From Dactylosporangium sp. CA-052675 (GTDB lineage Bacteria; Actinomycetota; Actinomycetes; Mycobacteriales; Micromonosporaceae), in the NCBI RefSeq assembly GCF_050947935.1, contig NZ_CP192010.1, forward strand, positions 3,180,935 through 3,244,934: DNA of 64,000 nt, written 5' to 3'. Position 1 is the stretch's first letter. The number at the start of each line of letters is the position of its first letter. A program made the position numbers and the translations under genes. The notes under the pieces were generated by a model. That model was not told the origin of the DNA, ran no database searches, and saw only the letters and a list, made by a program, of their open reading frames with translations. Of the stretch, positions 4,168-29,100 are shown piece after piece.

Positions 4168-4176
4168 CAGAGCATG

Positions 4177-4217
4177 TTACCGACCGGTAATGAGAATGTC
4201 ACGGCCTTCTCATTCTC
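4177..4217. promoter_or_regulatory. putative operator(s) in the TetR / CocE-hydrolase divergent region: a 14-bp palindrome TTACCGACCGGTAA (4177-4190) and an inverted repeat GAGAATG-N11-CATTCTC (4193-4217)
   Basis: Perfect dyad symmetry read directly; it lies 10 bp upstream of the TetR start codon. Confidence 0.4.
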
Positions 4218-4274
4218 GGAACGGGCTCCTAGGCTCCCGCCACCACGAAGCGCTACCCCGCCAGGAGCGTGCGC

Positions 4275-5825
4275 ATGACCCGTTCCCGCCCGACCATCGC
4301 CCTCGTCGCCGCCGCCGTCCTCGCCGCAGTCACCCTCCAGGCGCCGCCCGCCGCCGCGGCCGCGCCCACCACGAAGTTCGTCGACATCGCCGGAGCCGGC
4401 GGCGTCACCCTCAAGGCCAACGTCGTCGCCCCCGCCGACACCGCGAGGCACCCCGCGATCGTGTTCCCGTCCAGCTGGGGGCTCAACGACCTCGAATACC
4501 TCGCGCAGGCAAAGGCGCTGGCCGGGCGCGGGTACGTCGTCGTGTCCTACACCCCGCGCGGCTGGTGGGCCTCCGGCGGCGAGATCGACACCGCCGGGCC
4601 GCAGGACCTGGCCGACCTGTCGAAGATCGTCGACTGGACGATCGCGAACACCGCGGCCGACCCGGCCCGCATCGGCGCGGCCGGCGTCAGCTACGGCGCC
4701 GGGATCAGCCTGCTCGGGTCCGCGTTCGACCAGCGCATCCGCGCGGTCGTCATGATGAGCGGCTGGACCGACCTCGTCTACAGCCTCTACGGCGACAACA
4801 CCCGCCACCGGCAGTCCGCCGGGCTGCTGAGCCTCGCCGCGAGCCTGCTCGGCCACCCCGGCACCGACCTGAGCGGCAAGCTCGCCGACTTCAACGCCGA
4901 CCGCAACGTCGAGGAGGTGAAGGCCTGGGCCCGGGTGCGCTCGGCGGCCACGTACCTCGACGCCATCAACGCGAACAAGCCGGCCGTGATGATCGCGAAC
5001 GCGTGGGGCGACTCCTTCTTCCCGCCCGACCAGCTCGTGGACTTCTTCGGCCGGCTGCAGACCCCGAAGCGGCTCGAGCTGCGCCCCGGGGACCACGCGA
5101 TCGCCGAGTTCACCGGCATCCTGGGGCTGCCCAACGGCGCCTGGACGAGTCTGTACCGCTGGTTCGACCAGTACCTCGCCGGCGTGGACACGGGCATCGG
5201 CGCCGAAGCGCCGGTACAGCTGCAACCGCTGAACGCGGGGGCCGAGCAGTATGCGTCGTGGTCGGCGCTGAACACCTCGGTCCGGCGCTACGGGCTCGGC
5301 CCGGTCCGCCGCCTCGACGGCACCGGCCTGCTCGGCGGCGCCCCGAGCACCGGCTGGAGCAAGACGCTGCCGGGCGACCTCGACACCGTCGCGAACGGCG
5401 GCGTGGTGCTGCTGACCAACGGCGTCGGCGCGTTCACCGGCCAGCAGCCGCAGATCTGGCTGCCCGCGGTGGACCGGCTGCGCGCGGGCGTGTGGGCGTC
5501 GGAGCGGCCCGGTTCGGCGCTGCGCATCCGCGGCATCCCGCGGGTCCATCTGAACCTGGCCGGCACCCCGAAGGGGACGCTGATCGCGTACCTGTACGAC
5601 CTCGACAACCTCGGCAACGCCAAGCTCATCACGCACGCCCCGGTGTCCTGGAGCGGCGGCGGCTCCGTCGATGTGGCACTGTCCGCGACCGCGTACGACG
5701 TGCCGGCCGGCCACTCCCTGACCCTCGTCGTGGACACCACGGATCCGCTGTACTACGACGACAATGCCCTCGGCGCCACCGTGACCGTCGCGGGCGGATC
5801 ATATGCGGACGTGCCGATCCGGTAG
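4275..5825 (+). CDS. secreted CocE/NonD-family hydrolase (S15 X-Pro dipeptidyl-peptidase-like alpha/beta hydrolase)
   Basis: AGGAGC Shine-Dalgarno sequence 7 nt before the ATG at 4275. There is a signal peptide with an AAAAAP cleavage region. The nucleophile motif is GVSYGAG, and the C-terminal beta-sandwich is typical of this family. Confidence 0.7.
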   Translation: MTRSRPTIALVAAAVLAAVTLQAPPAAAAAPTTKFVDIAGAGGVTLKANVVAPADTARHPAIVFPSSWGLNDLEYLAQAKALAGRGYVVVSYTPRGWWASGGEIDTAGPQDLADLSKIVDWTIANTAADPARIGAAGVSYGAGISLLGSAFDQRIRAVVMMSGWTDLVYSLYGDNTRHRQSAGLLSLAASLLGHPGTDLSGKLADFNADRNVEEVKAWARVRSAATYLDAINANKPAVMIANAWGDSFFPPDQLVDFFGRLQTPKRLELRPGDHAIAEFTGILGLPNGAWTSLYRWFDQYLAGVDTGIGAEAPVQLQPLNAGAEQYASWSALNTSVRRYGLGPVRRLDGTGLLGGAPSTGWSKTLPGDLDTVANGGVVLLTNGVGAFTGQQPQIWLPAVDRLRAGVWASERPGSALRIRGIPRVHLNLAGTPKGTLIAYLYDLDNLGNAKLITHAPVSWSGGGSVDVALSATAYDVPAGHSLTLVVDTTDPLYYDDNALGATVTVAGGSYADVPIR

Positions 5826-5834
5826 AACGGGTGC

Positions 5835-7091
5835 ATGAACATCATCCGCACCGACCACGTCCTGGAGGTGCCGCTCGACCACGACGACCCCGCGGGCGAG
5901 ACCATCGCCGTCTACGCCCGCGAGGTCGTCGCCCCCGGCGGCGAGGACAAGCCGTGGCTGGTGTTCCTGCAGGGCGGCCCCGGCAGCGCCTCGCCGCGCC
6001 CGCTCGGCCGGGAGTCCTGGGTGGGGCGGGCCCTCGACGACTACCGGGTGCTGCTGCTCGACCAGCGCGGCACCGGCCGCTCGGCCCGCGTCAGCCGCCA
6101 CAGCGTCACGCGGCGCGGCGGCCCGCGGGCGCAGGCCGAGTACCTGTCGCACTTCCGCGCCGACAGCATCGTCCGCGACGCCGAGTGCTTCCGCCGCCAC
6201 CTGCTCGGCGAGGCCCGCTGGACGGTGCTGGGCCAGAGCTTCGGCGGCTTCTGCGCCGTCACCTACCTGTCGTTCGCCCCCGAAGGACTGCGCGAGGTGC
6301 TCATCACCGGCGGGCTGCCCGGGCTGCACGCGCGGGCCGAGGACGTCTACCGGCGCACCTACCCGCGCGTCGCGGCGCGCAACGCGGCCCACTACGCGCG
6401 CTACCCGGACGACGTCGAGGCCGTCCGCGCCATCGCCGAGCACCTGCGCGCCCACGACGTCCGGCTCCCCGACGGCGCCCCGCTGAGCGTGGAGGCCTTC
6501 CAGACGCTGGGCGTCGCGCTGGGCTCCAGCACCGGCTCCCACGAGCTGCACTACCTGACCGAGGACGCCTTCGAGGCCCCCGGTGTGCTCTCCGACGCCT
6601 TCCTCGCCGAGGTCCACCACCGCCTGAGCTACGCGACGCGGCCGGTCTTCCCGCTGCTGCACGAGCCCATCTACGGCCAGGGCCCGGGCGCCACCGCCTG
6701 GGCCGCGCATCGCCTGCGCGCGGAGCACCCCGAGTTCGACGCCCTGGCCACGGACGCCCCGGTCTACTTCACCGGCGAGATGACGTATCCGTGGCAGTTC
6801 GCCAACGACCCGGCGCTGGCCCCGCTGGGCGAGGCGGCCGAGCTGCTCGCGGCCCGCGACTCGTGGCCCCGCCTCTACGACCCGGCGGCCCTGGCCCGCA
6901 ACGAGATCCCGGTCGCGGCCGCGGTGTACCACGACGACATGTACGTCGACCGCGAGCTCTCCCTGGCCACCGCCGACGCGATCCGGGGCGCCCGCGTCTG
7001 GGTCACCGACGAGCACGAGCACGATGCCCTGCGGGTCAGCTCCGGCCCGGTGCTCGACCGCCTGATCGGCATGGTCCGCGGCGAGCGCTGA
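5835..7091 (+). CDS. alpha/beta hydrolase, proline iminopeptidase-like (S33 family)
   Basis: Motifs LQGGPGS, GQSFGG (nucleophile elbow) and LLLDQRGTGRS are present. Confidence 0.7.
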   Translation: MNIIRTDHVLEVPLDHDDPAGETIAVYAREVVAPGGEDKPWLVFLQGGPGSASPRPLGRESWVGRALDDYRVLLLDQRGTGRSARVSRHSVTRRGGPRAQAEYLSHFRADSIVRDAECFRRHLLGEARWTVLGQSFGGFCAVTYLSFAPEGLREVLITGGLPGLHARAEDVYRRTYPRVAARNAAHYARYPDDVEAVRAIAEHLRAHDVRLPDGAPLSVEAFQTLGVALGSSTGSHELHYLTEDAFEAPGVLSDAFLAEVHHRLSYATRPVFPLLHEPIYGQGPGATAWAAHRLRAEHPEFDALATDAPVYFTGEMTYPWQFANDPALAPLGEAAELLAARDSWPRLYDPAALARNEIPVAAAVYHDDMYVDRELSLATADAIRGARVWVTDEHEHDALRVSSGPVLDRLIGMVRGER

Positions 7092-7161: not shown

Positions 7162-8388
7162 TCAGCGCCGCGGCTTCTGCGGCGCCCTCGGCCGCACGAG
7201 CGGCGGGCCCGCCGCGGCCAGGTCGCCCTGAACCGTGCGCAGTGCCTTCTTCGGCTGGTAGTTCGCGTCCCACAGGCAGCCGGCGCCCTCCGGCGGGCTC
7301 TTGAACCAGCCCGGGATCCACGAGTGCTTGTCGGTGAAGCCCCACACCGTGAACGACAGGCAGTGGGGGTTCATGAGGCACGCCTGGAGCAGGACGTGGT
7401 AGTTGTACGCCGCGGCCTGGTCGCGGGCGTTGAGGTCGGCGCCCGCCGCGTCCAGCGCCGGGTCGGACGCGTTCTTCAGCAGGCTGCGCGCGTCGACCTC
7501 GGTGAAGGCCACGGCCAGGCCGAGGTCGGTGAACCTCTGCAGCGCGTCGGCCACGGCGAGGACGTCGTAGTTGCCGTACTGGGTGCTGAGGTGGCCCTGG
7601 CTGCCGACGCCGTCGATCGGCACGCCCCGGGCGCGCAGCCCGCGGACCAGGTCGTAGACGAACCGGGTCTTGTCGCCGGGGCCGCCGTCGCCGAACGCCT
7701 CGATGTTGTAGTCGTTGTAGAACAGCAGCGCCTTCGGGTCGGCGGCGCGGGCCCAGCGGAAGGCGTCGGCGAGGTAGTCCGGGCCGAGCAGGTCGGCGAA
7801 CTTCTGCTTCAGCGAGCCGGTGTCGCCGCCGAGGTGGATCGCCGACGGGGTCTCCCACGGGTCGGAGACGGCCTCGTTGACCACGTCCCACTGCCAGATC
7901 CGGCCGCGGTAGCGGCTCACCACGTCGGTGATGTGCCGCTTGAGCAGGGCGCGCAGCTGCGGGCCGTCGATGGTGCCGTCCTGGATGCCGGTGCTGAGCC
8001 AGCCGGGGAGCTGGCTGTACCAGGCCAGGACGTGGCCGCGCACCTGCTGGTGGTTGCGCTCGGCGGCGGCGACGAACGCGTCGGCCGCGGCCCAGTCGTA
8101 GGTGCCGCGGGTGGGCTCCAGGCTCTCCCACTTCATCGCGTTCTCGGCGGTGACGGTGGAGAACTGTCCGTCCACCATGGACCGGTACTGCGGGTCGGCC
8201 GCGTCGGCGTAGGCGGCCGCGTCCACGGCGGTGCCGAACGCCAGGCCGTTGCGGGCGGCGAGCCCGCGCAGGCTCTGGTCCTGCGTCGCCGGCGGGCGGG
8301 GACCGCCGGCGGACGCGGCGACGCCGCCCAGCGTGGCCGCGACCACGGCCGCCAGAAGGCCGGCCGTGGCCATGCTGCGTAATGTCAT
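7162..8388 (-). CDS. secreted GH10 endo-1,4-beta-xylanase
   Basis: ATG at 8388 with GGAG about 7 nt upstream. There is a signal peptide. The motifs WDVVNEA and ITEVD, carrying the catalytic glutamates, are typical of GH10. Confidence 0.8.
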   Translation of the reverse strand: MTLRSMATAGLLAAVVAATLGGVAASAGGPRPPATQDQSLRGLAARNGLAFGTAVDAAAYADAADPQYRSMVDGQFSTVTAENAMKWESLEPTRGTYDWAAADAFVAAAERNHQQVRGHVLAWYSQLPGWLSTGIQDGTIDGPQLRALLKRHITDVVSRYRGRIWQWDVVNEAVSDPWETPSAIHLGGDTGSLKQKFADLLGPDYLADAFRWARAADPKALLFYNDYNIEAFGDGGPGDKTRFVYDLVRGLRARGVPIDGVGSQGHLSTQYGNYDVLAVADALQRFTDLGLAVAFTEVDARSLLKNASDPALDAAGADLNARDQAAAYNYHVLLQACLMNPHCLSFTVWGFTDKHSWIPGWFKSPPEGAGCLWDANYQPKKALRTVQGDLAAAGPPLVRPRAPQKPRR

Positions 8389-8403
8389 GAGGATGGCTCC
8401 CGA

Positions 8404-8417
8404 TTGTTTCGAAACAA
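8404..8417. promoter_or_regulatory. 14-bp palindrome TTGTTTCGAAACAA immediately upstream of the xylanase RBS
   Basis: Perfect dyad. The core TGTTTCGAAACA recurs at 12575-12586. Confidence 0.4.
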
Positions 8418-8491
8418 TTCCGGATTCGCCTTGAGACATCGACGCTATTGCCACACGAAAGGCGAGTCAACAAGCCTCCGTTATCGAAACA

Positions 8492-9702
8492 TCATTGGCG
8501 CGAAACCCGCTTGCTGATGATGTCGAAGGCGACCGCGGCGATCAGCACGAGGCCCTTGATGGCCTGCTGCCAGGCCGCGTCGACGCCGAGGATCGACAGG
8601 CCCATGTTGAGCACGCCCATGATGAGCGCGCCGATCACGGCCCCGGTGACCTTGCCGATGCCGCCGGTCACGGCCGTGCCGCCGATGAACGCGGCGGCGA
8701 TGGCGTCCAGTTCGTAGTTGGTGCCGGCGCCCGCGACACCGGCCCCGGCGCGGGAGGTGGTGACGACCGCGGCGACACCGGCCAGAATGCCCATGTTGAC
8801 GAAGATGAGGAAAGTTACACGCTTCGTCTTCACGCCCGAAAGTTTCGCCGCGGCGAGATTTCCGCCCATCGCGTAGATATGCCGGCCGAATACGGTGTTG
8901 CCCATGATGTACGTGTACAGAATGACGAGCGCGCCGACGATGACGAGCACGTTGGGGGTGCCGTCGGTGCTCTCGGCGAGCAGGTAGGTGATGTAGCCGA
9001 TGAGGGCCGTGAACACCACGAGCTTGCCGATGAACGCGGCCTGCGGCTCCAGGCGCAGGTCGTAGCGGATCAGCTCGCGGCGGGTGCGCAGCTGGAAGAA
9101 GGCCAGGCCGCCGATCGCCACGAGACCCACGAGCAGCGTCATGCCGTCGAGGTTGCCCACGAAGCCCAGCGCGTTGGGCAGCGACTTGGCCGCGATGGCG
9201 CCGAAGCCCTTGTCCTGCACCGGCACCGTCTGACTGACCGCGAGCACGGCCAGGCCCCGGAAGAGCAGCATGCCGCCCAGCGTCACGATGAAGGCGGGGA
9301 TGCCGACGTACGCGATCCAGAAGCCCTGCCAGCATCCGACGACGACGCCGATGACGATGGACGCGGCCACCGCCAGCGGCCACGGCCAGCCCCAGTGGGT
9401 GATCATCAGGGCGCAGACGCCGCCGATGAAGGCCACGATGGACCCGACCGACAGGTCGATGTGCTGGGCGACGATGACCATCACCATGCCGATCGCCAGG
9501 ATCAGCACGTAGGCGTTCTGCTGCACCAGCGCGGCGACGTTGTCGGGGTAGAGCAGGCGGCCGTCGGTCAGCACCTGGAACGTGACGACGATGGCGATCA
9601 GCACCGTCAGCATGCCGTACTGCCACAGGTTCTGCCCCAGATAGCCCCGCAGCGAGGACACCTCGGTGGGCTTCGTCTCCGGCGGCAGCGTCTCCACGGT
9701 GC

Positions 9703-11307: not shown

Positions 11308-12429
11308 TTACAACCCCAGGTCTGAGGCTTTGAAGAAGCCGGAGTCGACGAGCTTCGACTTCACGTCGTCCTTCGTGACCACGACCGGCGGGAGGAGGTA
11401 GGAGGGGACGACCTTGACGCCGTTGTTGTACGTCTTGGTGTCGTTCGTCTCCACCGCGGTGCCCTTGGAGATCGCGTCGACCATCTTCGCGACCTGGTCG
11501 CCGAGGGTGCGGGTGTCCTTCCAGACCGTCATCGACTGCTTGCCGGCCAGGATGTTCTTGGTGTTGGCGAGGTCGGCGTCCTGGCCGGTGAGGGTCGGCC
11601 AGTCCGCGCCGGGCTTGTAGCCGTGCGAGTCCAGCGACTGCGCGATGCCCAGCGCGAGCGAGTCGTTCGGGGACAGCACGACGTCGACCTTCTTGCCGCC
11701 GGTGTAGAACGAGTTCAGGCGGTTGTCCATCTCGGCCTGCGCGCCCTCGGTCTTCCAGCCGTTGATCGAGACCGTCTTCCAGTCGTCGTTGCTGGCCAGC
11801 TTCTTGCCCGACGGGATGACCAGCTTGCCGCTGTCCACGTACTGCTTGAGCACGTCCCAGGCGCCGGCGAAGAAGAACTTGGCGTTGTTGTCGTCCGAGG
11901 AACCGGCGAACGGCTCGAGGTTGAACGGGCCCTTGCCCTGGTCCAGGCCCAGCTTGGACACGATGAACTGGCCCTGCAGCTGGCCGACCTTGTAGTTGTC
12001 GAAGGTCGCGTAGTAGTCCACGTTCGGGCTGGAGTTGATCAGGCGGTCGTAGGCGATGACCTTGACCTTCTTGTCCGCCGCCTGCTGCAGCACCGGGGCC
12101 AGCGCCGTGCCGTCGATCGAGGCGATGACCAGGATCTTCGCCTTGTCGTTGATCATGTTCTGGAGCTGGGTGATCTGCTGGTCGACCTTGTTGTCGGCGT
12201 ACTGCAGCGAGGTCTTGTAGCCGGCCTTCTTGAGCAGGTCCTCGAGGTGGGCCCCGTCGTTGTTCCAGCGCTCCAGGCTGCGGGTCGGCATCGCGATGCC
12301 GACCAGCGCCGGGCCGCTGTCGCCGCCGCCCCCGGCGTTGTCGTCGGAGCGGGTCTTGCTGCACGCCGACGTCGTGGCGAGCAGGGCAGCTAGAGCGGTG
12401 GCGGCCAGGACGCGGAGAGTCTTACCCAT
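11308..12429 (-). CDS. sugar ABC transporter substrate-binding lipoprotein (ChvE/xylose-binding-like)
   Basis: ATG at 12429 is preceded by AAAGGAGG. There is a lipobox, LLATTSAC. The periplasmic-binding fold is type I. Confidence 0.8.
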   Translation of the reverse strand: MGKTLRVLAATALAALLATTSACSKTRSDDNAGGGGDSGPALVGIAMPTRSLERWNNDGAHLEDLLKKAGYKTSLQYADNKVDQQITQLQNMINDKAKILVIASIDGTALAPVLQQAADKKVKVIAYDRLINSSPNVDYYATFDNYKVGQLQGQFIVSKLGLDQGKGPFNLEPFAGSSDDNNAKFFFAGAWDVLKQYVDSGKLVIPSGKKLASNDDWKTVSINGWKTEGAQAEMDNRLNSFYTGGKKVDVVLSPNDSLALGIAQSLDSHGYKPGADWPTLTGQDADLANTKNILAGKQSMTVWKDTRTLGDQVAKMVDAISKGTAVETNDTKTYNNGVKVVPSYLLPPVVVTKDDVKSKLVDSGFFKASDLGL

Positions 12430-12627: not shown

Positions 12628-13062
12628 GTGAGCGTGGATCTTCGGCAGGTCTTCGACGACCTGGTGCGGTTCGAGACCGATCTCTGGAACGGCGTCGACG
12701 CGCGCCTGCGGCAGGCCGGGGCCGTGCCCCTCGGGAGCCTCAACGTGCTGCAGGTGGTGGCCCGGACCGCGGACTGCCGCGTGAACGACATCGCCGACGC
12801 GCTGTCGATCACCATCGGCGGCGCGAGCCAGGCGGTCGACCGTCTGGTGACACGCGAGCTGCTGGCCCGCCGGCCGAACCCGGCCGACCGGCGATCGTCC
12901 ATTGTGGAGCTGACCGGCTCCGGCTCGGCCGCCCTCGAGGCCGCCGAGGAGATCTTCGACGCGGCGCTCGCCGAGTGGTTCGGCGGCGCGCTGACGGGTA
13001 GCGCCCTGCGCGGCTTCGCCCGCTCACTGTCCACCCTGCGCACCTGGAGGAAGCATGTCTGA
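12628..13062 (+). CDS. MarR-family transcriptional regulator
   Basis: GTG start; the winged-helix segment is LNVLQVVARTADCRVNDIADALSITIGGASQAVDRLV. Confidence 0.7.
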   Translation: MSVDLRQVFDDLVRFETDLWNGVDARLRQAGAVPLGSLNVLQVVARTADCRVNDIADALSITIGGASQAVDRLVTRELLARRPNPADRRSSIVELTGSGSAALEAAEEIFDAALAEWFGGALTGSALRGFARSLSTLRTWRKHV

Positions 13063-13981
13063 GGCACGAGCCGTCCGATTCGACACCTTCGGCGGCCCCG
13101 AGGTGCTCTACGTGACCGGGATCCCGATGCCGTCACCCGGACCGGGTGAGGTGGTCGTCGCCGTGCGCGCGGCCGGCATCAACCCGGGCGAGAGCGGGAT
13201 TCGCAGCGGGGCGCTGGAGTTCAAGTACCCCACCCGTCTCCCCTGCGGCGAGGGGAGCGACCTGGCGGGCGTCGTGACCGCGGTCGGCCCGGGGGTGACC
13301 GGCTTCGCGCCCGGCGACGAGGTGCTGGGCTTCTCCTGGACCCGCTCCAGCCACGCCACCCACACCGCCGTGCCGGTCACCCAGCTCATCCCCAAGCCGG
13401 CCGCGCTGTCGTGGGAGGTGGCCGGCGCCCTCTACGTGGTGGCCTGCACCGCCTACGCGGCCGTGCGCGCCGTCGGCGCCCGGGAGGGCGAGACGATCGC
13501 CGTGTCGGCCGCGGCCGGCGGCGTCGGCACCGTGACCGTCCAGCTGCTGCGCCACCTCGGCGCGCGGGTCCTGGCCATCGCCTCACCGTCCAACGCGGAC
13601 TGGCTCGCGGCCCGCGGCGCCACCCCGGTCCCCTACGGCGACGGCCTCGCGGACCGGCTGCGCGCGGCGGCGCCCGAGGGCATCGACGCCTTCATCGACC
13701 TGTTCGGGCCGCAGTACGTCGACCTGGCGCTCGAGCTGGGCGTCCCGAAGGACCGCGTCAACACCGTCATCGCTTTCGAGGCCGCGGCGCGCCTGGGCGT
13801 GCGGGCGGAGGGCAGCGAGGACGCGTCGACCGCGGACGTGCTGACGTACATGGCCGGCCTGGTGGCCGACGGCACCCTGGAGATCCCGATCGCCGGCACG
13901 TACGCGCTCGACGACGTGGCGAAGGCCTTCGAGGAGCTGGACCGCCGCCACACCCGCGGCAAGATAGTCCTGCTGCCGTGA
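13055..13981 (+). CDS. NADPH:quinone oxidoreductase / zinc-independent MDR-family dehydrogenase
   Basis: The Rossmann motif AAAGGVG is present and the protein has the MDR fold. The start overlaps the MarR stop by 8 nt. Confidence 0.75.
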   Translation: MSEARAVRFDTFGGPEVLYVTGIPMPSPGPGEVVVAVRAAGINPGESGIRSGALEFKYPTRLPCGEGSDLAGVVTAVGPGVTGFAPGDEVLGFSWTRSSHATHTAVPVTQLIPKPAALSWEVAGALYVVACTAYAAVRAVGAREGETIAVSAAAGGVGTVTVQLLRHLGARVLAIASPSNADWLAARGATPVPYGDGLADRLRAAAPEGIDAFIDLFGPQYVDLALELGVPKDRVNTVIAFEAAARLGVRAEGSEDASTADVLTYMAGLVADGTLEIPIAGTYALDDVAKAFEELDRRHTRGKIVLLP

Positions 13982-14017
13982 TCTCGGTGCTGACCCTGCC
14001 GATCGAGCGCTGCCGCG

Positions 14018-14268
14018 TGATGGCACACCTCGACGGCGACATCGTGGCGCCGGGCGACGGCGGCATCGACGTGTTCGAGACGCTGCTGCCGGTGAGCCGC
14101 TTCCTCGCGGGGCTGGCGCGATCATCGCAGTTTCCGCGTTCCAACTGCCGGTGCACGGATTGCCGCAATCCGCTCTCCACCACCGGGAGGGGGGTCGCTG
14201 CCGGCGCCCAGGTCGAAGCCGATGAGCGGATGCCGTTCGCCGTCCATCCGCATACGATCCACCGGTGA
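14018..14268 (+). CDS. hypothetical small protein (83 aa). Its stop overlaps the GTG start of the SUKH gene (GTGA).
   Basis: In-frame ATG at 14018; the call rests on the coupling geometry alone. Confidence 0.25.
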
Positions 14269-14780
14269 CTGTCGAGCATCGGGTGCTGCCGATCGCGCTG
14301 GAAAAGGCTCACAAGCTTGGATTTTTCGAGGATCACGATGGGCACGACTTCCAGCCGGATGCCGAGTTCGAGTGGTCGGTCGAAACCACCGAATGGTGGC
14401 GCGCGTGGACAGGTGATTCCGCTGTAGAAAGTGCGCCGCTGCGCGTCTTCGGAGTCGACGGCAGCGGTGGAAAGGCAGCCTTCTGGACCCGCTTGCCAGA
14501 CGCAGCCATCGAGACGCAACCCATCGTGTTCCTCGGTTCTGAGGGCGAGACTCGGGTCATCGCCCGCGACCTGGGCGACTACCTCTGGCTGCTGGCAAAC
14601 GGCGTCGGGCCATTGGAATCGGTCGACGGAATCCACCGCACTGCAGAGCCGCTGCCAGCGCTCGTGGCGCTCGCGCAGCAGTACACCGGCATCGCAACCC
14701 GCAGTCTTGAGGCGGTGATGGCAGCCGCCGGTTCCGAGCTCGCGGCCTTGACGGCCCTCATCGAATCGACCACGAGGTGA
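14265..14780 (+). CDS. SMI1/KNR4 (SUKH-superfamily) protein, a putative toxin-immunity-type protein
   Basis: W/G-rich motifs are present: EWWRAWTG, FGVDGSGG, IVFLGSEGETRVIARDLGDYLWLLANG. The gene is visibly AT-richer than its flanks. Confidence 0.5.
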   Translation: MTVEHRVLPIALEKAHKLGFFEDHDGHDFQPDAEFEWSVETTEWWRAWTGDSAVESAPLRVFGVDGSGGKAAFWTRLPDAAIETQPIVFLGSEGETRVIARDLGDYLWLLANGVGPLESVDGIHRTAEPLPALVALAQQYTGIATRSLEAVMAAAGSELAALTALIESTTR

Positions 14781-14922
14781 GCGAGCACCACTCGCGCGAC
14801 TGCATGGTCACAGCTGGGCCGGCGTCCGGATGTCCGCCGCGATCCGCGCGCTGCAGACCGTGACGGCCCAGCTGGCGGTTCCGCGCGGGATCTGCCGAAT
14901 TGCGTGCGCCTCTGAGATCCGG

Positions 14923-15384
14923 ATGTATACGTTGGCGTCCATGGGGACCGCGCCGTGGAAGGTTCGGCAGTACTGTTACTTCTGGCTGGCCAGCGAGGCG
15001 GTCACTGCTGGGCGGATCACGGAGCTTCTCGGGTTGGAACCGGATCGAATCGCCGTCATGGGAAGTCGGCGGACGTCGCCCCGGGTGGTCCCTGCCGCCC
15101 ATCGGTGGGAGATCAGCTGCCGGACGCACGGACGGATCGATGAACAAGTGTCCACCGTTCTCGCTCGCATCGCGCCCGCCGCCGACCGGGTGCGAGCCCT
15201 CGTCGATGGTGGCGATGTCGATGCGGGCCTCATGATGGTCCGCTGGTTCGACGATCCCGACGGCGGGTACGGCGCGATGGGCTGGTGGCTGACTCGCGAA
15301 CAGATCCAACTCCTCGCACGGATGGGCGCAACCGTCGAATCAGACGAATACGCAGGAGACTTCACGGCGCATTCGCCCCGGTGA
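14923..15384 (+). CDS. DUF4279-family protein
   Basis: The pattern RQYCYFWLASEAVTAGRITELLGLEPDRIAVMGSRRTSP...LMMVRWFDD...VESDEY matches this family as I recall it. The start could also be 14941. Confidence 0.5.
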   Translation: MYTLASMGTAPWKVRQYCYFWLASEAVTAGRITELLGLEPDRIAVMGSRRTSPRVVPAAHRWEISCRTHGRIDEQVSTVLARIAPAADRVRALVDGGDVDAGLMMVRWFDDPDGGYGAMGWWLTREQIQLLARMGATVESDEYAGDFTAHSPR

Positions 15385-15501
15385 CGCACTGATCTGCCGC
15401 GATTCGCTCACTACGCAACGTCATGACTTGAGGATCGTCCGGCTCACTGACATGCCGATGAGCGCGCACCCGACCACCCGCCGACCGTAGCAACCGACTG
15501 A

Positions 15502-16413
15502 TCAGGAGCAGTCGAATCGGTAGTCGAACGGCCGGTCAGGACAGCTCAAGCAGACGAACAAGTACATGCCGCCGACGTCGCCGAGCATCAAACCGGCCGG
15601 GTTCTGGATACGTCGCCATGGATGATGATCAGGGGCATCGAAGCCCCATCCGTCCATCGCCGGGCGGTCCTGCAGGGGGATCCAACGCTTCTCGTCGCCC
15701 CGACTGAACTCCCAGCTGGCCACCGTGATGAGATGCTCCATGGGCACGCCGCAGCCGCATGCCGGCCAGTCCGGCACCTGGGTCCAACCAGGATAGCCGC
15801 CCACCTTCGTACCGGAGGCGACCGCCAAGTCAGTCTCGTACTGCCAGCCGGTCTCCCGCTCGATCCGCGCGACGCTGTCCCTGATTTGCGACCAGACAAC
15901 CTCGGGCAGATCGCGGCTCGGGTACTCGGTGACGCGTTCCGGGTCCAAGACGCACGGGTCGGGCACGTACCGGGCGTCCGCCTCCTCGTCGGGCTCGGGC
16001 AACTCCTGCAGCCTGGCGCCGATATCAGCGCGGCGGCGCCACCTCAGTGCAGGTCGAGGCGAACTCCACGGTTGGTGATCGAACGGGCACCACAGCACCT
16101 GCAGCATGTCCGTGCCGGCGGGGAACGGAAGCTCGGGAAGGTCTTCAGCAAACAACTGCAACACCGGGACGAGCGGCACCTCGGCCTCGGATGGCTGGCG
16201 GTCGAGGTGGTCGTACGGTTCCGGCCCATCGCATATCGGCCAAGGTTCCTTCACCGGCCACAGCAGCGGACCCCCCATCGAACTCTGCTCGGCGGTCGGT
16301 GCTCCAAGCCTGGGATGCAGCCTTACGGTTGTCATGGCGAAAGGCACGACCTGCGGAAAGACTTCAGGTATGTCGATCGGGCTGGAAGCGGTGGTGCGCA
16401 CGGCGATGATCAT
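15502..16413 (-). CDS. DUF1963 (YwqG-like) family protein
   Basis: The motifs GGYPGWTQ...CGCG...MEHL and GDVGGMYLFVCLSC match this family. The start is either the ATG at 16413 (AGGGA upstream) or the ATG at 16335. Confidence 0.5.
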   Translation of the reverse strand: MIIAVRTTASSPIDIPEVFPQVVPFAMTTVRLHPRLGAPTAEQSSMGGPLLWPVKEPWPICDGPEPYDHLDRQPSEAEVPLVPVLQLFAEDLPELPFPAGTDMLQVLWCPFDHQPWSSPRPALRWRRRADIGARLQELPEPDEEADARYVPDPCVLDPERVTEYPSRDLPEVVWSQIRDSVARIERETGWQYETDLAVASGTKVGGYPGWTQVPDWPACGCGVPMEHLITVASWEFSRGDEKRWIPLQDRPAMDGWGFDAPDHHPWRRIQNPAGLMLGDVGGMYLFVCLSCPDRPFDYRFDCS

Positions 16414-16446
16414 ATGGCGATCCCTGGAGTCTGTGGCAACGCTTGA

Positions 16447-16707
16447 CTACCGGGCCACCACACTGACTCGCCAAGAAGCGCGGGTGACAATGTGGCGGTG
16501 ACCGATCGCGGACCTGAGTGAGGTCCAGGGCGCTGCGGTCATAAGGTTCTGGCGTTGACCCGGGGGCACCACGAGCCGGCGGCCCCACTTGTCGACATCC
16601 TCCCGATGCGCGGCGATGGAGGCGGCGACCTCGGCCTCCAACGCGGCGGCCGGCATCCGCCGTGCGCACTCCCGCACGATCTCGTCAATCAGCGACCCAC
16701 CCGCCAT
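16447..16707 (-). CDS. possible small ORF (86 aa), hypothetical
   Basis: ATG at 16707, at the edge of the AT-richer island. No recognisable motif. Confidence 0.2.
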   Translation of the reverse strand: MAGGSLIDEIVRECARRMPAAALEAEVAASIAAHREDVDKWGRRLVVPPGQRQNLMTAAPWTSLRSAIGHRHIVTRASWRVSVVAR

Positions 16708-16874
16708 CGACCCGGCCTCGCCGGCCGGGGCCAAGGTCGTACTCGTGGCGTTCGGGGTGGCTGGCGCGGCCTCATCCTGAGTGACCACCGTGAGCCCGGG
16801 CGTACCTTCCCGACCCGCGTTGGCGCTCGGGCCATACTCGAATTCCCGCCTCCGCCCAACACCCCTGCACGAGG

Positions 16875-18281
16875 TCAGGCCGGCCTGAAGGCGGACCGGG
16901 CGACCGCGCGGCGGACGGCCTCCAGGGATTCCTCGACGTCGGCCTCGTCCGTCGACCAGTTGCTCACCGACACGCGCAGGATCGCGCGGCCGCGCCACGT
17001 CGAGCCCGACATCCAGGCGCGGCCGTCCTCCAGCAGAGCGCGGGTCACCGCGGCGGTGCGCCCGTCGTCGCCGAACGCGGCGCAGACCTGCGTGAAGACG
17101 ACGTCGTTGAGCACCTCGGCGCCGTCGATCGCGGCGATGCCCTCGGCCAGCCGGCGGGCGTTGCGCGCGAATCCGTCGACCATCTCGGCGACCCCGCGCC
17201 GGCCCAGCGAGCGCAGCGCGGCCCACACCGGCACCCCGCGGGCGCGCCGGGACAGCTCGGGCACCTTCTCGAACGGGTCGGCCGGCCCGCCGGGGCCCGC
17301 GGGCTCGATGAGATAGCTGGCCCGCACGCCCATCGCGGCGCGCAGGGCCGAGGGGTCCGCGACGATCGAGATGCCGCAGTCGTACGGCACGTTCAGCGTC
17401 TTGTGCCCGTCCGTCGCCCACGAGTCGGCGCGCTCGAGGCCGGGCACGAGGTGGCGCAGCCGGGGCGACGCGGCGGCCCACAGCCCGAAGGCGCCGTCGA
17501 CGTGCACCCAGGCGCCGTGGCGGTGCGCGAGCTCGGCCGCCTCGCCGATCGGGTCGAACGATCCACTGTGGACGTTCCCGGCCTGCAGGCACACGATGGT
17601 GGGCTCGTCCCCGCCGGTGCGCAGCGCCTCGGCCAGCGCGTCCAGCCGGATGCGGCCCTGCTCGTCGGCGGCCACGGGCGTCGGGGCGCCCAGGCCGAGG
17701 TACCGCAGCGCCAGATCGAGCGTGTCGTGCCGCTCCTCGCCGACCAGCACGCGGATGCGCGGCGCCCCGAACAGCCCGTCGAAGTCGAGGTCCCAGCCCC
17801 GGCGCGCGAGCACGTGACGGCGCGCGGCGGCCAGGCCGGTGAAGTTGGCCATCGTGGCGCCGGTGACGAACCCGACGTCGGCCCCGGCGGGCAGCCCGAG
17901 CAGGTCGAGCACCCAGGCGCCGGCCGCCTCCTCCAGCGCCGCGGTCGCGGGCGTCGGGTACCGCATCGCGGCGTTCTGGTCCCAGGCGCTCACCAGCCAG
18001 TCGGCCCCGAGCGCGGCCGGGAGCGTGCCGCCGATCACCCAGCCGTAGAACCGGCCGGACGGCATCGCCATCAGCCCCGGCTCGGCCGAGCGGGCCAGCA
18101 GGTCCACGACCTCGGCCGGGTCGGACGGCTCCTCGGGCAGCGCCCCGCCGACGGCCGGCGCGAGCTGGTCGGCGTCGGCGCGCGGGGGCACGGACCGCCC
18201 GGCGAGCGAGGCCAGCCAGGCCCGGGCGTGCGAGTCGGCCGCGGCGAGGGCGGCGTCGTAGGCGTCCTTGTTCGCACTCAT
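16875..18281 (-). CDS. pyridoxal-phosphate-dependent decarboxylase (group II, aspartate-aminotransferase fold)
   Basis: The lysine region SWATDGHKTLNVPYDCG carries the PLP-binding lysine. The overall fold is type I. Confidence 0.75.
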   Translation of the reverse strand: MSANKDAYDAALAAADSHARAWLASLAGRSVPPRADADQLAPAVGGALPEEPSDPAEVVDLLARSAEPGLMAMPSGRFYGWVIGGTLPAALGADWLVSAWDQNAAMRYPTPATAALEEAAGAWVLDLLGLPAGADVGFVTGATMANFTGLAAARRHVLARRGWDLDFDGLFGAPRIRVLVGEERHDTLDLALRYLGLGAPTPVAADEQGRIRLDALAEALRTGGDEPTIVCLQAGNVHSGSFDPIGEAAELAHRHGAWVHVDGAFGLWAAASPRLRHLVPGLERADSWATDGHKTLNVPYDCGISIVADPSALRAAMGVRASYLIEPAGPGGPADPFEKVPELSRRARGVPVWAALRSLGRRGVAEMVDGFARNARRLAEGIAAIDGAEVLNDVVFTQVCAAFGDDGRTAAVTRALLEDGRAWMSGSTWRGRAILRVSVSNWSTDEADVEESLEAVRRAVARSAFRPA

Positions 18282-22649: not shown

Positions 22650-22840
22650 AAACCCGCTCCGTTCACGCCGGGTTCATGCGGCCGCGAGCTGATGTTCATC
22701 GATGTGATCGTGACGTGCGCCGCATTGTCGAGCCGCGGGTGGTCGGGGTCGCGGGCGGTTGTGCGGCACGTGCTAACGTCCGGCGACAGGTACCCCGACT
22801 CGACGCGGCACGCCGCCCTGACCTGCTGTGATGGGCCTAG

Positions 22841-23596
22841 ATGACGACCGTTCAACCACTGTTGGTGGTCAGCGTCCACGACGTGGCGCCCGCGACCGCC
22901 GACGAGACCGCGCGCTGGTGCGCCGACGCCGACGCGCTCGGCATCCCGGTCTCGCTGCTGGTGATCCCCGGGCCGTGGCGCGGGATGGCGCTGGCCGAGC
23001 ACGGCGACTACGCGGAGGTGCTGCGCGACCGCGCCGCCCGCGGCGACGAGCTCGTGCTGCACGGCTGGTGCCACCGGGCCGGGCCGGAGGGGCGCCCCGT
23101 GCGCCGCGCCGTCGGCCGGGCCGTGGCCCGTGGCGCCGCCGAGTTCGCCGCGCTCGACGAGCGGCAGGCCGCCCGCCGCCTCGGCGACGCCAAGGAGGTG
23201 CTCGACCGCCTCGGGCTGCGCACCGCCGGCTTCACCCCGCCGGGCTGGCTCGCCTCGCCGGCCGCCGAGCGGGCGCTGGCGGGGGCCGGCTTCCGGTACA
23301 CCACCGACCACTTCGGCGTGAAGGACCTCCGCGGCGCCGGCCCCACCCGGGCCCGGCGCGGGTTCGCGCTCTCGCATCGCCCCGGGGGCACCGGGGAACG
23401 GCTCGGCTCGGCCGTCCTGCGCGGCGGCGCGGCCTGGGCCACCCGCCGCCGCGGCCTGGTGCGCGTCGCGCTGCACCCCGACGACCTGCACCGGCCGCGC
23501 CTGCGCGACGACACGCTGCGGGCGATCGAGGGCGCGCTGAAGGCCGGCGCCCGCGCCACCACCTACGGCGCCGTCCTCGACGCGGCGGCGTCGTGA
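22841..23596 (+). CDS. DUF2334 polysaccharide-deacetylase-like protein
   Basis: The pattern LVVSVHDVAP...LLVIPGPW matches DUF2334. Confidence 0.55.
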   Translation: MTTVQPLLVVSVHDVAPATADETARWCADADALGIPVSLLVIPGPWRGMALAEHGDYAEVLRDRAARGDELVLHGWCHRAGPEGRPVRRAVGRAVARGAAEFAALDERQAARRLGDAKEVLDRLGLRTAGFTPPGWLASPAAERALAGAGFRYTTDHFGVKDLRGAGPTRARRGFALSHRPGGTGERLGSAVLRGGAAWATRRRGLVRVALHPDDLHRPRLRDDTLRAIEGALKAGARATTYGAVLDAAAS

Positions 23597-24696
23597 GGAT
23601 CGTCCAGCTCGCGAACTTCTACACGCCGGTCTCCGGGGGCTTGCGCACCTGCGTGGAGCAGACCGGGCGCGGCTACATCGCGGCCGGTCACGAGCGCGTC
23701 ACGCTGGTGCCCGGCACCGAGGACCGCGACATCACCCTGCCCGACGGCCGCCACCTCACCGTGCGCAGCCCGCTGCTGCCCGGCACGGGCGGCTATCGCG
23801 TGCTCACCGCCCGCCGCCGCGTGTGCGCGCTGCTGGACCGGGTCGAGCCCGACGTGCTGGAGGCCAACGACAAGCTCAGCATCTCCTGGCTCGCCCCGTG
23901 GGCACATTCCCGGGGTGTACCGCTGGTGCTGGTCTCGCACGAGCGCATCAACGCCATCCTGCGCACCCGGGTGCCGCGCTGGTTCCCGCTGGACTCCGCC
24001 GCCACCGCGGCCAACCGCCGCCTGCACCGGCTCGTCGACCACATCGTGCTCACGTCGGCCTTCTCCGCCGCCGAGTTCGAGGTCTTCGGCCGGGAGAAGA
24101 TCCACCGCGTCCCGCTCGGGGTGGACCTCGACACCTTCCGGCCGGTCGAGCGCGAGCCCGGCGTGCGCCTCGTGACCGTCAGCCGCCTGTCCACGGAGAA
24201 GCACCCGGAGCTGTCCATCGAGGCCCTGCGCGAGCTGCGCCGCCGCGGCGTGCCCGCCACCCTCGACGTGATCGGCACCGGCCCGCTGCAGCGCCGCCTG
24301 ACCCGTCTCGCCGAGGGGCTGCCGGTGCGCTTCCTCGGTCACGTGGCCGAGCGGGGCCGCCTCGCCGAGCTCGTGGCCGGCGCGGACATCTCGCTGTCGC
24401 CGTCCCCGGCCGAGACCTTCGGCCTGGCCACGCTGGAGTCCCTCGCGTGCGGCGTGCCGGTCGTGGTGCCGTCGAAGGGGGCCGCGGGTGAGCTGATCCT
24501 GCGGCCGGAGTCGGGCCGGGTCACCGACGGCACCGCGCACGCGCTGGCCGACGGCGTCGAGTCGCTGCTCAGCGCGGCGCCGCAGCGCCGTCGCTCGGAC
24601 GCGCGAGCGGTGGCGGAGCAGTTCCCGTGGTCGGCGACGGTCGGTGGTCTGCTGGAGGTGTTCGCCCGGGCGACCGGGCGCCAGCGCGTCCCGTAG
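23593..24696 (+). CDS. GT4-family glycosyltransferase
   Basis: GTG at 23593 overlaps the upstream stop (GTGA). A GT-B C-terminal motif, ETFGLATLESLACGVPVV, is present. Confidence 0.75.
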   Translation: MRIVQLANFYTPVSGGLRTCVEQTGRGYIAAGHERVTLVPGTEDRDITLPDGRHLTVRSPLLPGTGGYRVLTARRRVCALLDRVEPDVLEANDKLSISWLAPWAHSRGVPLVLVSHERINAILRTRVPRWFPLDSAATAANRRLHRLVDHIVLTSAFSAAEFEVFGREKIHRVPLGVDLDTFRPVEREPGVRLVTVSRLSTEKHPELSIEALRELRRRGVPATLDVIGTGPLQRRLTRLAEGLPVRFLGHVAERGRLAELVAGADISLSPSPAETFGLATLESLACGVPVVVPSKGAAGELILRPESGRVTDGTAHALADGVESLLSAAPQRRRSDARAVAEQFPWSATVGGLLEVFARATGRQRVP

Positions 24697-25621: not shown

Positions 25622-26119
25622 ATGCTCATCCGGCCATGGCAGACGGGCGACGAGCACCTCGTGGCGGCCGCCGAGCGGCACCTGTCCGCGCGCAGCATCG
25701 ACCGGCGCTTCTGCGTCGGCAGTGGCGGGCGGCTGCCCACGTTCTACCTGCGTCATCTGGAGGGCGGCCCGCGGCCGGAGTGGGACGCGCAGGTCGCGGT
25801 GGACGACGGCGGGCGGCTGTGCGGGTGGGCCGAGTACGGCCGCCGCCCCGCCTGTTCGCCCGCCGCCGACCTGGCCGTGCTGGTCGCCGACCCGTGGCAG
25901 CGCACCGGCCTGGCCACCGCGCTCGTGCGCGCCCTGGTGCCGCGCATGGCCGCGGCCGGCGTGCGCACCGTCCAGGCCGACGTGACCGGCGCCAACGCGG
26001 CCAGCAAGGGCCTGATCCGCGCCCTTGCCGGCCCCGGCCTGCGCCCGACCTACCAGGACGGGATGGTCCACTACGCCTTCGATCTGGCGGTCGTACCGTT
26101 CGCGCCGCTGACCGTCTGA
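25622..26119 (+). CDS. GNAT-family N-acetyltransferase
   Basis: The acetyl-CoA motif is WQRTGLATALVRAL. Confidence 0.6.
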   Translation: MLIRPWQTGDEHLVAAAERHLSARSIDRRFCVGSGGRLPTFYLRHLEGGPRPEWDAQVAVDDGGRLCGWAEYGRRPACSPAADLAVLVADPWQRTGLATALVRALVPRMAAAGVRTVQADVTGANAASKGLIRALAGPGLRPTYQDGMVHYAFDLAVVPFAPLTV

Positions 26120-29100
26120 CCCGCCGCCGCCGCCCGCTCGATCGCCGCCCCGACATCGCCGACCCGGTCCGCGAGCAGCCCGACCGCGCCGACGGCCCGG
26201 CTCATCGGGTCGTCCTCGGCCCCGCCGAGCGCCTGCGCCCGGCGATGGGCCGCCTTGACCTCCGCCCACCGCGCCGCCTGCTCGGGGGTGAGGCGGCCGC
26301 GCAGCTCGGCCAGCTTGAGCAGGTTCGCCTCGGCGCCGGTGGTGAGCGTCTGGGCCTCGCCGGCGTAGTGGTCGTCGATGACCGCCTCCAGCTCGGCGTC
26401 GTTCATGACCGGCACGACCCGCTCGGCGAGCTTGTTCATGTTGCGGTACGAGCCTTGCAGCAGGAACGGCGGCTCGGTGCGCGACGCGTCGGCCTGGGCC
26501 GCGGAGGCGATGTACGCGCGGTTGGCCGCCAGCACCACCTCCTGCACCCGCAGCAGCTTGCGCAGCACGGCGAGCATCCGGTCCACCTCGACCGCCGAGT
26601 ACGGGTGGGCGAGCTGGTCCGGCCGCACGGTGCCGTCGCCGCGGGCCAGCCGCACCAGCAGCTCGACGTCGCCGCGGTCCCGCGCCGACAGCGGGGCGAG
26701 GACGGTGTTGGAGGTCAGGGCGTTCTCGATGTAGCTCAGCGCGAACACCTCGTCCCGGCCGGTCAGCACGTCGCCGAGGTTCCACACGTCGGCGCGGTTG
26801 GCCAGCATGTCGGGGATCCGGAAGCGCTGCCCCGACTCGGTGTACGGGTTGCCGGCCATGCACACGGCGAACCGCTTGCCCCGCAGGTCGTACGTGCGCG
26901 TCCGGCCGTTCCAGACGCCCTCCATGCGCCGCTGGGCGTCGCACAGGGAGATGAACTTCTGCAGCAGCTCCGGCGAGGTGTGCTGGATGTCGTCGAGGTA
27001 CAGCAGGACGTTGTTGCCCATCTCCAGCGCGAAGTTGACCTTCTCGATCTCCAGCCGGGCGGTCGCGTTCGGCGCCTGCGCCGGGTCCAGCGACGTCACG
27101 TGGTGCCCGAGCGCCGGCCCGTTCACCTTGACGAACGCGAGCCCGAGGCGGCTGGCCACGTACTCCATCAGCGTCGTCTTGCCGTAGCCGGGCGGCGAGA
27201 TGAGCAGCAGCAGACCCATCTGGTCGGCCCGCTTCGCCTCGCCCGCCGCGCCCAGCTGCCGCGCCAGGTTGTCGCCGATCAGCGGCAGGTACACCTCGTC
27301 GAGCAGCCGGTTGCGCACGAACGCGCTCATCACCTTCGGCCGGCAGTCCTCCAGCCGCAGCCGCTCCCGCTCGCGCGCGGCCAGCTCGTTGCGGCGGCGC
27401 TGGTAGGCCCGGAAGGCCGGCACGCGTTCGAGCCGGAACCGCCGGGTGCGGGCGAGCACCTCGTCCAGCCGCAGCCGCATGCGGCGGCCCTCGATGCGTG
27501 GATGGGTGCCGAGCAGCCCCTCCACGGTCGCGGTGAGCTCGGCCGCCGACTCGCGCCGCGGCAGCCCGGAACCGCAGAGCACGACGGCGGCGGCCTCCTG
27601 GAGGTCCGGGCTGTCCGCAGCGAACGAGGTGAGCCACGCCGACACGAGCTGGCGGCGGGCGGCCAGATCGCCCTCGAGGGCCCGCAGGTCCGCCGCGAGC
27701 TCGTCGGACGGCACGGCCCGCCGGAAGCGGTCCAGCAACGCCCGCGCGCCCGCGCCGGTGACGAACCCGAAATCCGGCAGGGCCAACTCCTCGAACAGGT
27801 ATGCGGCGGCCGACGAGGACGAGCCCATGGCCGACTGCAGCTCCGCGCACAGCTCGCCGATCGCGTCCGAGGGCCCGAACGCCGCCCGGGCCCGGGCCAG
27901 CGACCGCGCCCGCCGGGTCCAGGCCGCTTTCGCCTCGTCGCCGGCCCCGAAAGCCCAGAACAGCTGCGCCTCGGCGCGATCCGCCCCCGGATGGCGCAGG
28001 AGCCCGGCACCGGCGTCCAGCCGCCGCAGGACCTCGAGGATCAGCGCCGCGTCGTGGTCGTGCACACCGCGCTCGTAGCCCTCGTCGTAGCGCTCGTCAG
28101 CCAGGCGCCGCACGGCCTGCAGGGATCCGCCTTCGGGCGCGACCTCCAGGGCCAGGGCGGCCAGGTGCTCGGCGCGGTACACCTCGGGCGACTCGGAGGC
28201 GACGAGCTGCCCCCAGAACGGGCGCGCCGCGGCGATCTGCGGGTCGTCCACCGGTGCGCGGTAGTCGGTCGCGGTCACGGTGAACGCCAGCCCGTCGCCG
28301 TGCGGCACGAGCGTGAGGTCGATCGGCTGGGTGTTGACGGCGAACCGGTGGCGGCCGAGGCGGATGAGGTCGGCCGAGCCGTCGAAGAGGTCGGTCCGGT
28401 CCCGCAGCAGCCGGCCGGCCTCCAGCCGGGCCCGCTGGACCCGCCCGTCCAGCTCCTCGGCGCGGACCTGGTCGCCCAACTCGCGCAGCTCGCCGGCCAG
28501 GCGGCGGACCCGCGCGACCATCGGGTCGGTCGTGAAGTACGTGTTGACCTCGTCGGCCGACGTCATGGCGGCGACCCGGCGCCCGACGCCGGCGAGGATC
28601 CGCTCGGCGGACTCGGCGAGCCGGTCGGCGCGGCGGGCCCGCTCGTCCAGCAGCGCCTGCCGGCGGGCCGAGAATGCCTCGTAGACGTCGGTGCGCCGGT
28701 CCGCGAGCCGGGCCAGGAAGTCCTCGGACTCGCCGAAGCGGGACTCCAGGTTCTCCAGCTGCAGCATGAGCCGGCCGAGCTGCTCGTCGCAGCGCTCGGG
28801 GGTGCCGGCGGCCGCGAGCGCGCCGGTGACCGCCTGCCCGAGCAGCGCGAACTCGGCCGCGAACTCGGCCCGCCCCTCGACGGCGAGCAGCTCGCGGCGG
28901 CGGGCGTCGAGGGTGGCCCGGGCCCGGTTGACGCCGCCGAGCACCTCGCCGATGCGGGCCAGGATGCCGACCCGGACGGTGGCGTCGGCGATCTCGAGGG
29001 AGCCGACCACCTCCGTGACGATCTGCAGCGCCTCCGCCTGCGCGGCCAGCCGCTCGCCGACCGGTCCCGCGTCGGCCACGGTCCGGATCGCCTCGGCGTC

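Follow-up and report, generated by a model that had tools for sequence, protein, structure and literature searches.

Does an AT-richer stretch of small genes in the chromosome of Dactylosporangium sp. CA-052675 represent an orphan-immunity cassette, acquired horizontally and able to protect its host against the toxins of competitors? Such a cassette had been proposed in an earlier note on 64,000 nucleotides of this chromosomal DNA (contig NZ_CP192010.1, positions 3,180,935 to 3,244,934; here called the window, with a GC content of 0.72), in which three small genes at positions 14018-16707 were assigned to the SUKH (SMI1/KNR4), DUF4279 and DUF1963 (YwqG-like) families. We found a foreign islet whose genes form a mosaic and not a cassette. 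The explanation that we favour as a whole, a mosaic assisted by an insertion sequence (IS) and carrying two orphan-immunity-type genes next to a YwqG/TYPP protein, has in our estimate a probability of roughly 55%. The islet and its three open reading frames (ORFs) are:

13983-16888, no strand: the variable segment (islet), delimited by blastn against six Dactylosporangium loci (L008-L013), by tblastn synteny and by a 123-bp empty site in one of them (L011).
14265-14780, plus strand: ORF1, a divergent SUKH-like (SMI1/KNR4-like) candidate of 171 amino acids with a GTG start and a sub-threshold family signal.
14941-15384, plus strand: ORF2, a DUF4279 / FdL-Imm5 family protein of 147 amino acids counted from M38, with the mechanical ORF beginning at 14830 (Pfam E = 2.4e-15).
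15502-16413, minus strand: ORF3, a predicted YwqG/DUF1963 (TYPP) fold of 303 amino acids counted from an ATG, with a GGYP...Q motif and CxC and CxxC cysteine pairs.

If the islet was inserted, related strains should keep its flanks without it. These flanks are:

13055-13981, plus strand: left flank, a zinc-type alcohol dehydrogenase / quinone oxidoreductase with ADH_N and ADH_zinc_N Pfam domains, syntenic across relatives.
16875-18281, minus strand: right flank, a pyridoxal-phosphate (PLP)-dependent decarboxylase with a Pyridoxal_deC Pfam domain, syntenic and with 80-98% amino-acid identity in relatives.

Both had been named correctly in the earlier note, as their Pfam matches confirmed. The synteny set consisted of six Dactylosporangium loci from a GTDB genome scan with the decarboxylase as query (80-98% identity). 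The order decarboxylase ... (oxidoreductase) - MarR - sugar-binding protein was kept in 6/6 of these loci, and tblastn did not find ORF1, ORF2 or ORF3 between the flanks in any of them. Using blastn, we located the edges. On the left, homology of the window DNA to the relatives stops at 13979-13982, the stop codon of the oxidoreductase (at 14068 in one relative); on the right, it picks up at 16889-16906, inside the 3' end of the decarboxylase gene. The islet is thus about 2.9 kb in size, with a left edge at about 13983 (or 14069) by synteny and a right edge at 16888. The span given previously is slightly off, and its ends lie near two start codons, those of an unsupported 82-codon ORF (ATG 14020) and of a transposase-fragment ORF (ATG 16707).

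What occupies the gap differs among the six loci. In strain CA-092794 (L011) it measures 123 bp, an empty site. CA-139066 (L012) carries a 5.2-kb operon of Lrp plus branched-chain keto-acid dehydrogenase (BCKDH) type, while CS-047395 (L010) and D. salmoneum (L013) hold a TetR regulator and a membrane protein. The closest strain, NPDC000244 (L008), contains other small ORFs without Pfam matches, up to the end of the contig. Since the content varies strain by strain, the gap between decarboxylase and oxidoreductase is a variable hot spot, and its 2.9-kb content is specific to this strain. A synteny comparison had been suggested as a check on horizontal origin, and it came out in favour of it: the segment is absent in six relatives that keep the flanks, one of them with an empty site. 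Within the same set, the oxidoreductase has been lost in two strains. No tRNA gene (including by tRNA scan), integrase or flanking direct repeats were found at the islet.

The composition of the islet also sets it apart. Over positions ~14100-16650 the GC content is 0.62-0.69, compared with 0.74-0.80 in the flanking genes, which reproduces the drop seen in the earlier note (the AT-richer string quoted there lies at 14314-14342). GC content at third codon positions (GC3) is 0.75 in ORF1, 0.76 in ORF2 and 0.80 in ORF3, against 0.91-0.99 in the immediate neighbours and a median of 0.95 among 44 ORFs of the window. A sugar-ABC operon at 8.5-12.5 kb is as low in total GC as the islet (0.65-0.68), yet its GC3 is normal at 0.96. 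Total GC by itself is insufficient, and GC3 separates the islet from this operon. Since GC3 is low in ORF1-3 and normal in the equally GC-poor ABC genes, the low GC of the islet reflects foreign codon usage and not amino-acid content.

Between ORF3 and the decarboxylase, at the right edge of the strain-specific segment, we detected a trace of a mobility gene:

16509-16826, minus strand: 5' fragment of an IS256-family transposase, about 105 codons, truncated on the side facing ORF3 (tblastn and blastn).

Positions 16509-16719 (minus strand) encode an N-terminal transposase part with 55-58% identity to annotated IS256 transposases (tblastn), and positions 16612-16826 match, by blastn, a gene on a Rhodococcus plasmid that is annotated as an IS256 transposase (71.6% identity, E = 1e-17). 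This stretch also matches transposases borne by mycobacteriophages; besides the transposase, no phage DNA match to the islet was obtained. By blastn, 121 plasmid records match the islet segment, the top-listed ones being ORF3 homologues. The transposase fragment went unmentioned in the earlier note, though the stretch described there ends at its ATG.

The islet combines the features expected after horizontal acquisition: relatives lack it at a site that is conserved, its composition is atypical, and it holds the trace of a mobility gene. Because it is missing from six relatives, has an atypical GC3, contains the IS256 fragment and carries an ORF2 whose kin lie near IS110 and RepSA genes in other genera, Nocardioides among the genera with such kin, horizontal acquisition is well supported, as had been supposed. 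The 2.9-kb foreign mosaic was inserted at the intergenic hot spot, probably aided by an IS256-family element of which a truncated copy is left. It is an ordinary accessory islet, of a kind that is common in actinomycete genomes.

Did the three genes arrive as a unit? We inspected 12 homologue contexts with flanks extending to at most 6-8 kb; ORF1 accounts for five of them, ORF2 for three and ORF3 for four distinct ones. None contained more than one of the three genes (0/12) or had neighbours in common with the window, and no co-occurrence of ORF1-3 was seen across all 93 loci searched. Since the three genes never co-occur in the 12 other contexts, the islet is a mosaic of independently moving genes and not a conserved cassette, a term that finds no support.

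The DNA upstream of the genes fits such independence. Each of them is preceded by its own leader, about 45-55 nt long and shared with homologues from other genera:

14220-14264, plus strand: conserved leader of ORF1, with DNA homology to three other loci (L088, L002 and L093) from about 45 nt upstream of the start.

This leader contains TACGAT (14253-14258), of the TANNNT type, 6 nt before the GTG. The leader of ORF2, conserved in four genera, has TACGTT (14928-14933) 7 nt before the ATG. For ORF3, TATGAT lies at 16409-16414 (minus strand), 6-7 nt upstream of the likely start; a GTG at 16401 would give a protein of 299 amino acids, in agreement with the N-termini of most homologues. Since each gene has a conserved leader with TANNNT 6-7 nt before its start, the pattern suggests three independent, possibly leaderless, transcription units. 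The 82-codon ORF occupies 14020-14268, and its stop overlaps with the start of ORF1 (GTGA). We asked whether it might be a toxin fragment and rejected it as a gene: it has no Pfam match, and its conservation is restricted to the last ~24 codons, where it is that of leader DNA in front of ORF1 homologues. Nor was there a protein-family match in the 283 bp that precede ORF1.

A scan for promoters and terminators revealed no sigma-70 type promoter or terminator signal above shuffled sequence. This result, like the truncation of the adjoining transposase, would suit an old insertion whose genes are non-functional relics decaying by drift. We regard decay as extremely unlikely, since none of the three reading frames is broken or shortened relative to its homologues, the leaders with TANNNT 6-7 nt before the start are conserved, and dN/dS against homologues is 0.23-0.28 for ORF1, 0.11-0.20 for ORF2 and 0.15-0.21 for ORF3. 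By these ratios, all three genes are under purifying selection. The favoured explanation would see in them three unrelated accessory genes, each moving independently with its own leader and kept by such selection.

What might they be kept for? The clearest case is ORF2. The DUF4279 profile PF14106 matched it with E = 2.4e-15 and 57.3 bits (cut-off 25) over profile positions 2-114 of 116, a match that places ORF2 clearly in DUF4279. PF14106 is present in all close homologues. These are 146-147 amino acids long and their conservation starts at M38, which supports the start chosen here. Relatives with 81-86% identity occur in Micromonospora chalcea, Krasilnikovia and Nocardioides, the last one outside Micromonosporaceae, and show a consistently low GC3 (0.70-0.72) in low-GC surroundings. 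In its full-length Pfam match and its size of about 147 amino acids, ORF2 resembles the DUF4279 / FdL-Imm5 family, which has been predicted as an immunity family (PMC9424270). In cases described so far the DUF4279 gene follows a toxin gene, such as Rhs-Ntox33 in Salmonella (PMC13304343), whereas ORF2 and its three homologues stand alone: ORF1, not a toxin, lies upstream of ORF2, and no toxin adjoins the homologues in L089, L090 and L091. Experimental proof of DUF4279 immunity was not found in the literature.

These contexts bear on another explanation, in which the genes are cargo of a mobile element, left behind after decay of their carrier, that inhibits or modulates host proteins other than polymorphic toxins (for instance as anti-defence, anti-restriction or other inhibitor proteins). 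One ORF2 homologue (L091) lies in a region resembling an actinomycete integrative and conjugative element (AICE), near genes for RepSA, an HTH_17 excisionase-like protein and an AcrVA2-like protein; another (L090) adjoins an IS110 transposase gene, while the third (L089) has a dehydrogenase neighbour. The IS256 fragment borders our islet in a similar way. SUKH and TYPP folds are, moreover, general protein-binding scaffolds that have found viral use as well (SUKH in US22). However, PADLOC and PHROGs gave no relevant matches for the islet, its phage DNA match is confined to the transposase, and at the family level the literature ties DUF4279 and SUKH to toxin immunity. A cargo role of this kind seems unlikely to us, if worth keeping in view.

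ORF1 is less easily placed. NCBI names the exact protein 'SMI1/KNR4 family protein' (Dactylosporangium sp. CA-052675). Among its relatives, SMI1_KNR4 was detected below threshold in 10/38 and 15/45 members (best E = 3.3e-4) and SUKH_6, also below threshold, in 3/45. Judged from these relatives, ORF1 is a weak candidate for membership in SUKH. Its family comprises at least 792 clusters at 50% identity and shares the motif FG.DG.GG..A.W...QP.VFLGSEGE..V.A..L.D.LWLLA.G.GP.E; it is a large, SUKH-like clade outside Pfam coverage. A comparison of the ORF1 family with one single SUKH-4 protein by hhalign indicated no relation, a result that is uninformative. When the ORF1 family profile was run against PDB sequences, Photorhabdus PLL/PHL beta-propeller lectins were the only matches; their blades were matched repeatedly by ORF1 residues ~68-110 (window ~14466-14594), with E-values down to 5e-8 summed over repeats. 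We rejected these matches as a local resemblance to a short hairpin repeat of 29-36 residues, involving the conserved strand-turn-strand motif QPVVFLGSEGE.GVVA..L.D.LWLL.

In the sister strain Dactylosporangium sp. NPDC000244 (L001), a 70%-identical ORF1 homologue is situated within a small-gene cluster, together with a SUKH-4 gene, a DUF4253 gene and one with a weak DMP19-like match. SUKH-4 and DMP19-like are themselves immunity families by prediction, so this setting fits. Elsewhere the ORF1-like domain is fused to DUF4265, HAD_SAK_2 or TPR regions (P0311, P0331, P0328, P0334 and P0338). Stand-alone DUF4265 / HAD_SAK_2 genes were also noted near an ORF1 homologue (L002, 10262-10501) and an ORF3 homologue (L007, 7020-7595). 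Together, the fusions and neighbours hint that families of small genes travel with one another in a loose network.

ORF3 required a different approach, since the protein itself has no match to PF09234 (DUF1963); Pfam gave only UPF0167 at E = 0.22 and NCBIfam nothing. Its relatives were more informative: DUF1963 was matched at E≤1 in 37/40 of them (best 6.6e-8) and UPF0167 in 12/40, and the top PDB match of the family profile was YwqG (E = 0.016). The family alignment shows little or no variation at G205, G206, Y207, P208 and Q212 and none at the cysteines of C219xC221 and C288xxC291; the first repeat has G47, G48 and P49. Both the signature of TYPP proteins, with GGxP, a conserved Gln and paired cysteines (PMC4275035), and their fold, a duplicated strand-swapped beta-barrel as in 1PV5, were recovered in ORF3. 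From the known TYPP superfamily (Tsr4, YwqG, PDCD2L, PDCD2) it differs in being only 17% identical to YwqG, in lying itself below Pfam detection, and in the four further invariant Cys plus H113 of its actinobacterial clade, which make eight invariant Cys and one His. The invariant residues of the family include Cys, His, Trp and Gln. Of the three families named in the earlier note, DUF4279 stands by a direct Pfam match and DUF1963 through relatives and motifs with no direct match, while SUKH is weak and matched by no curated model.

The contexts of ORF3 homologues vary, some being chromosomal and others located on plasmids of Streptomyces. In Dactylosporangium sp. CS-033363 (L004), a 77%-identical homologue lies about 2 kb from a 1915-amino-acid DUF6531-RHS repeat protein; the two genes (RHS at 419-6166, ORF3 homologue at 8001-8900) are separated by RNase_T and APH genes. 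In Streptomyces chilikensis (L007) the gene is close to a PLP decarboxylase gene, a proximity that we dismissed as coincidence because the orientation differs and another gene intervenes.

A role in the physiology of the host itself, outside inter-bacterial conflict, has to be weighed at this point: ORF3 might be a dedicated chaperone, as PDCD2/Tsr4 is for the ribosomal protein uS5, and ORF1 an adaptor of the SMI1/KNR4 type. Eukaryotic TYPP relatives have been shown experimentally to be chaperones, PDCD2 being dedicated to uS5 (PMC7736825). A protein-interaction or chaperone-like role has also been proposed for the domain (Burroughs & Aravind, PMC4275035). Conservation in the ORF3 family is high (56 invariant columns, ~50% identity from Streptomyces to Dactylosporangium), and homologues have a stable placement in two Micromonospora genomes. 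On the other hand, the segment is strain-specific, has foreign codon usage and is absent at this site in close relatives, and contexts vary across all inspected genomes. A role of TYPP in bacterial ribosome biogenesis is without evidence according to Burroughs & Aravind (PMC4275035). We therefore consider such a housekeeping function quite improbable. For ORF3 alone, a protein-binding, chaperone-like module is what the family and fold predict. In the explanation that we favour, it would be a zinc-binding YwqG/TYPP beta-barrel (predicted zinc site C219, C221, C288 and C291) with a protein partner in its conserved pocket, acting in toxin neutralisation or in a chaperone-type function.

Several results speak against immunity as the role of these genes and have to be set against that explanation. 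With ORF1 itself as query, neither Pfam nor NCBIfam yielded a family at E≤1, all curated SUKH models having failed, and a Foldseek search of its model against PDB returned nothing significant. From known SUKH immunity proteins (SMI1/KNR4, PF09346; YobK of B. subtilis and RhsPI of V. parahaemolyticus) it differs in this lack of a curated model match, in its own family motif and in having no adjoining toxin. No toxin domain was detected in 37 proteins of the window, with small ORFs and the region beyond 40 kb partly screened; these proteins were metabolic enzymes, transport and regulatory proteins, glycoside hydrolases, lectin-domain proteins, a DUF3686/AAA ATPase and a few without a family. Neither a toxin gene nor a toxin C-terminal fragment nor a secretion gene adjoins the islet. 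A directly adjoining toxin was found in 0/12 homologue contexts, the nearest candidate being the RHS protein ~2 kb from the ORF3 homologue of L004, the one gene of toxin type noted near any homologue. The strong conservation of the ORF3 family is unlike the pattern typical of immunity proteins, which diversify fast. In the earlier note, ywqG of B. subtilis was said to sit in an LXG toxin locus; we found no experiment or paper that assigns immunity to YwqG/DUF1963.

The lack of a large upstream toxin had already been remarked on, and rightly so: the gene upstream of ORF1 is the oxidoreductase, and in the five contexts of ORF1 homologues, too, no toxin adjoins. An orphan immunity cluster in the strict sense has tandem immunity genes linked to a toxin, a toxin fragment or a secretion system; here we found a tandem pair of immunity-type genes and, in the 37 proteins and the 283-bp leader screened, no toxin domain. 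Orphan immunity is plausible for ORF1 and ORF2 by family membership, which is secure in ORF2 and weak in ORF1, and is unsupported for ORF3 as a YwqG/TYPP protein; the interpretation proposed earlier is in this way supported in part. ORF1 and ORF2 would most likely be stand-alone cytoplasmic binders that neutralise toxin domains injected by competitors.

The spacer between these two genes contains a further element:

14829-14911, plus strand: a hairpin element, rich in GC and about 65-80 nt long, located between ORF1 and ORF2.

Two copies of it are present in the small-gene cluster of L001, at 11778-11862 and 5115-5199 (89% and 82% identity; 101.7 and 85 bits), one of which lies just upstream of the SUKH-4 gene and folds at -53 kcal/mol (z -3.95). 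Marginal partial matches were obtained with nhmmer beside ORF1/ORF2 homologues (L093, E = 0.036; L090, E = 0.26), and the stretch over which the ORF2 module is homologous to DNA of three other genera begins and ends near sequences that resemble the element. There is no Rfam family for the element and only one solid copy within the window. Two additional candidate copies were discarded: 14193-14235 was not significant with the covariance model (CM; E = 0.06), and 15393-15460 was missed by CM and nhmmer alike.

The hairpin could hint at cassette-type mobilisation. Carried further, the gap would be a cassette-capture hot spot in which single immunity-type genes with leaderless promoters are swapped by recombination at the ~70-nt hairpin. 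We judge this very unlikely: the single solid copy in the window, the two non-significant candidates and the lack of a recombinase nearby weigh against it; equally doubtful is the corresponding integron-like or AID-like mechanism of acquisition in Micromonosporaceae. Acquired interbacterial defence (AID) clusters are the orphan immunity gene clusters of Bacteroidales. Like them, the islet has genes of immunity type that vary among strains, were acquired horizontally and lack a cognate toxin, and two heterogeneous genes of this type stand in tandem, separated by a repeated intergenic element. Unlike AID clusters, it contains two or three genes, no recombinase and one solid repeat copy, its host is an actinomycete and its immunity is putative.

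Apart from the islet, some other genes of the window caught our attention. A gene at 26071-30966 (minus strand) encodes a 1631-amino-acid protein with DUF3686 ('ATPase involved in DNA repair'), DUF7902 and AAA domains. It overlaps by 4 bp with a gene at 30963-33038 (minus strand) for a 691-amino-acid protein without a Pfam match (GC3 1.00), and the two may form a two-gene system. At 22828-24696 (plus strand) we noted a glycosyltransferase of family 4 that also matches the Pfam family 'GT4-conflict' (E = 1.2e-12), with a somewhat low GC3 of 0.82.

At present the locus is chiefly an example of a variable intergenic hot spot in Dactylosporangium, and an immunity label for its YwqG-type gene is unwarranted without evidence. 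If ORF1 and ORF2 neutralise incoming toxins, the islet would be another case of soil actinomycetes stocking orphan immunity genes by horizontal transfer. It would then also provide a testable function for the large SUKH-like clade to which ORF1 belongs.

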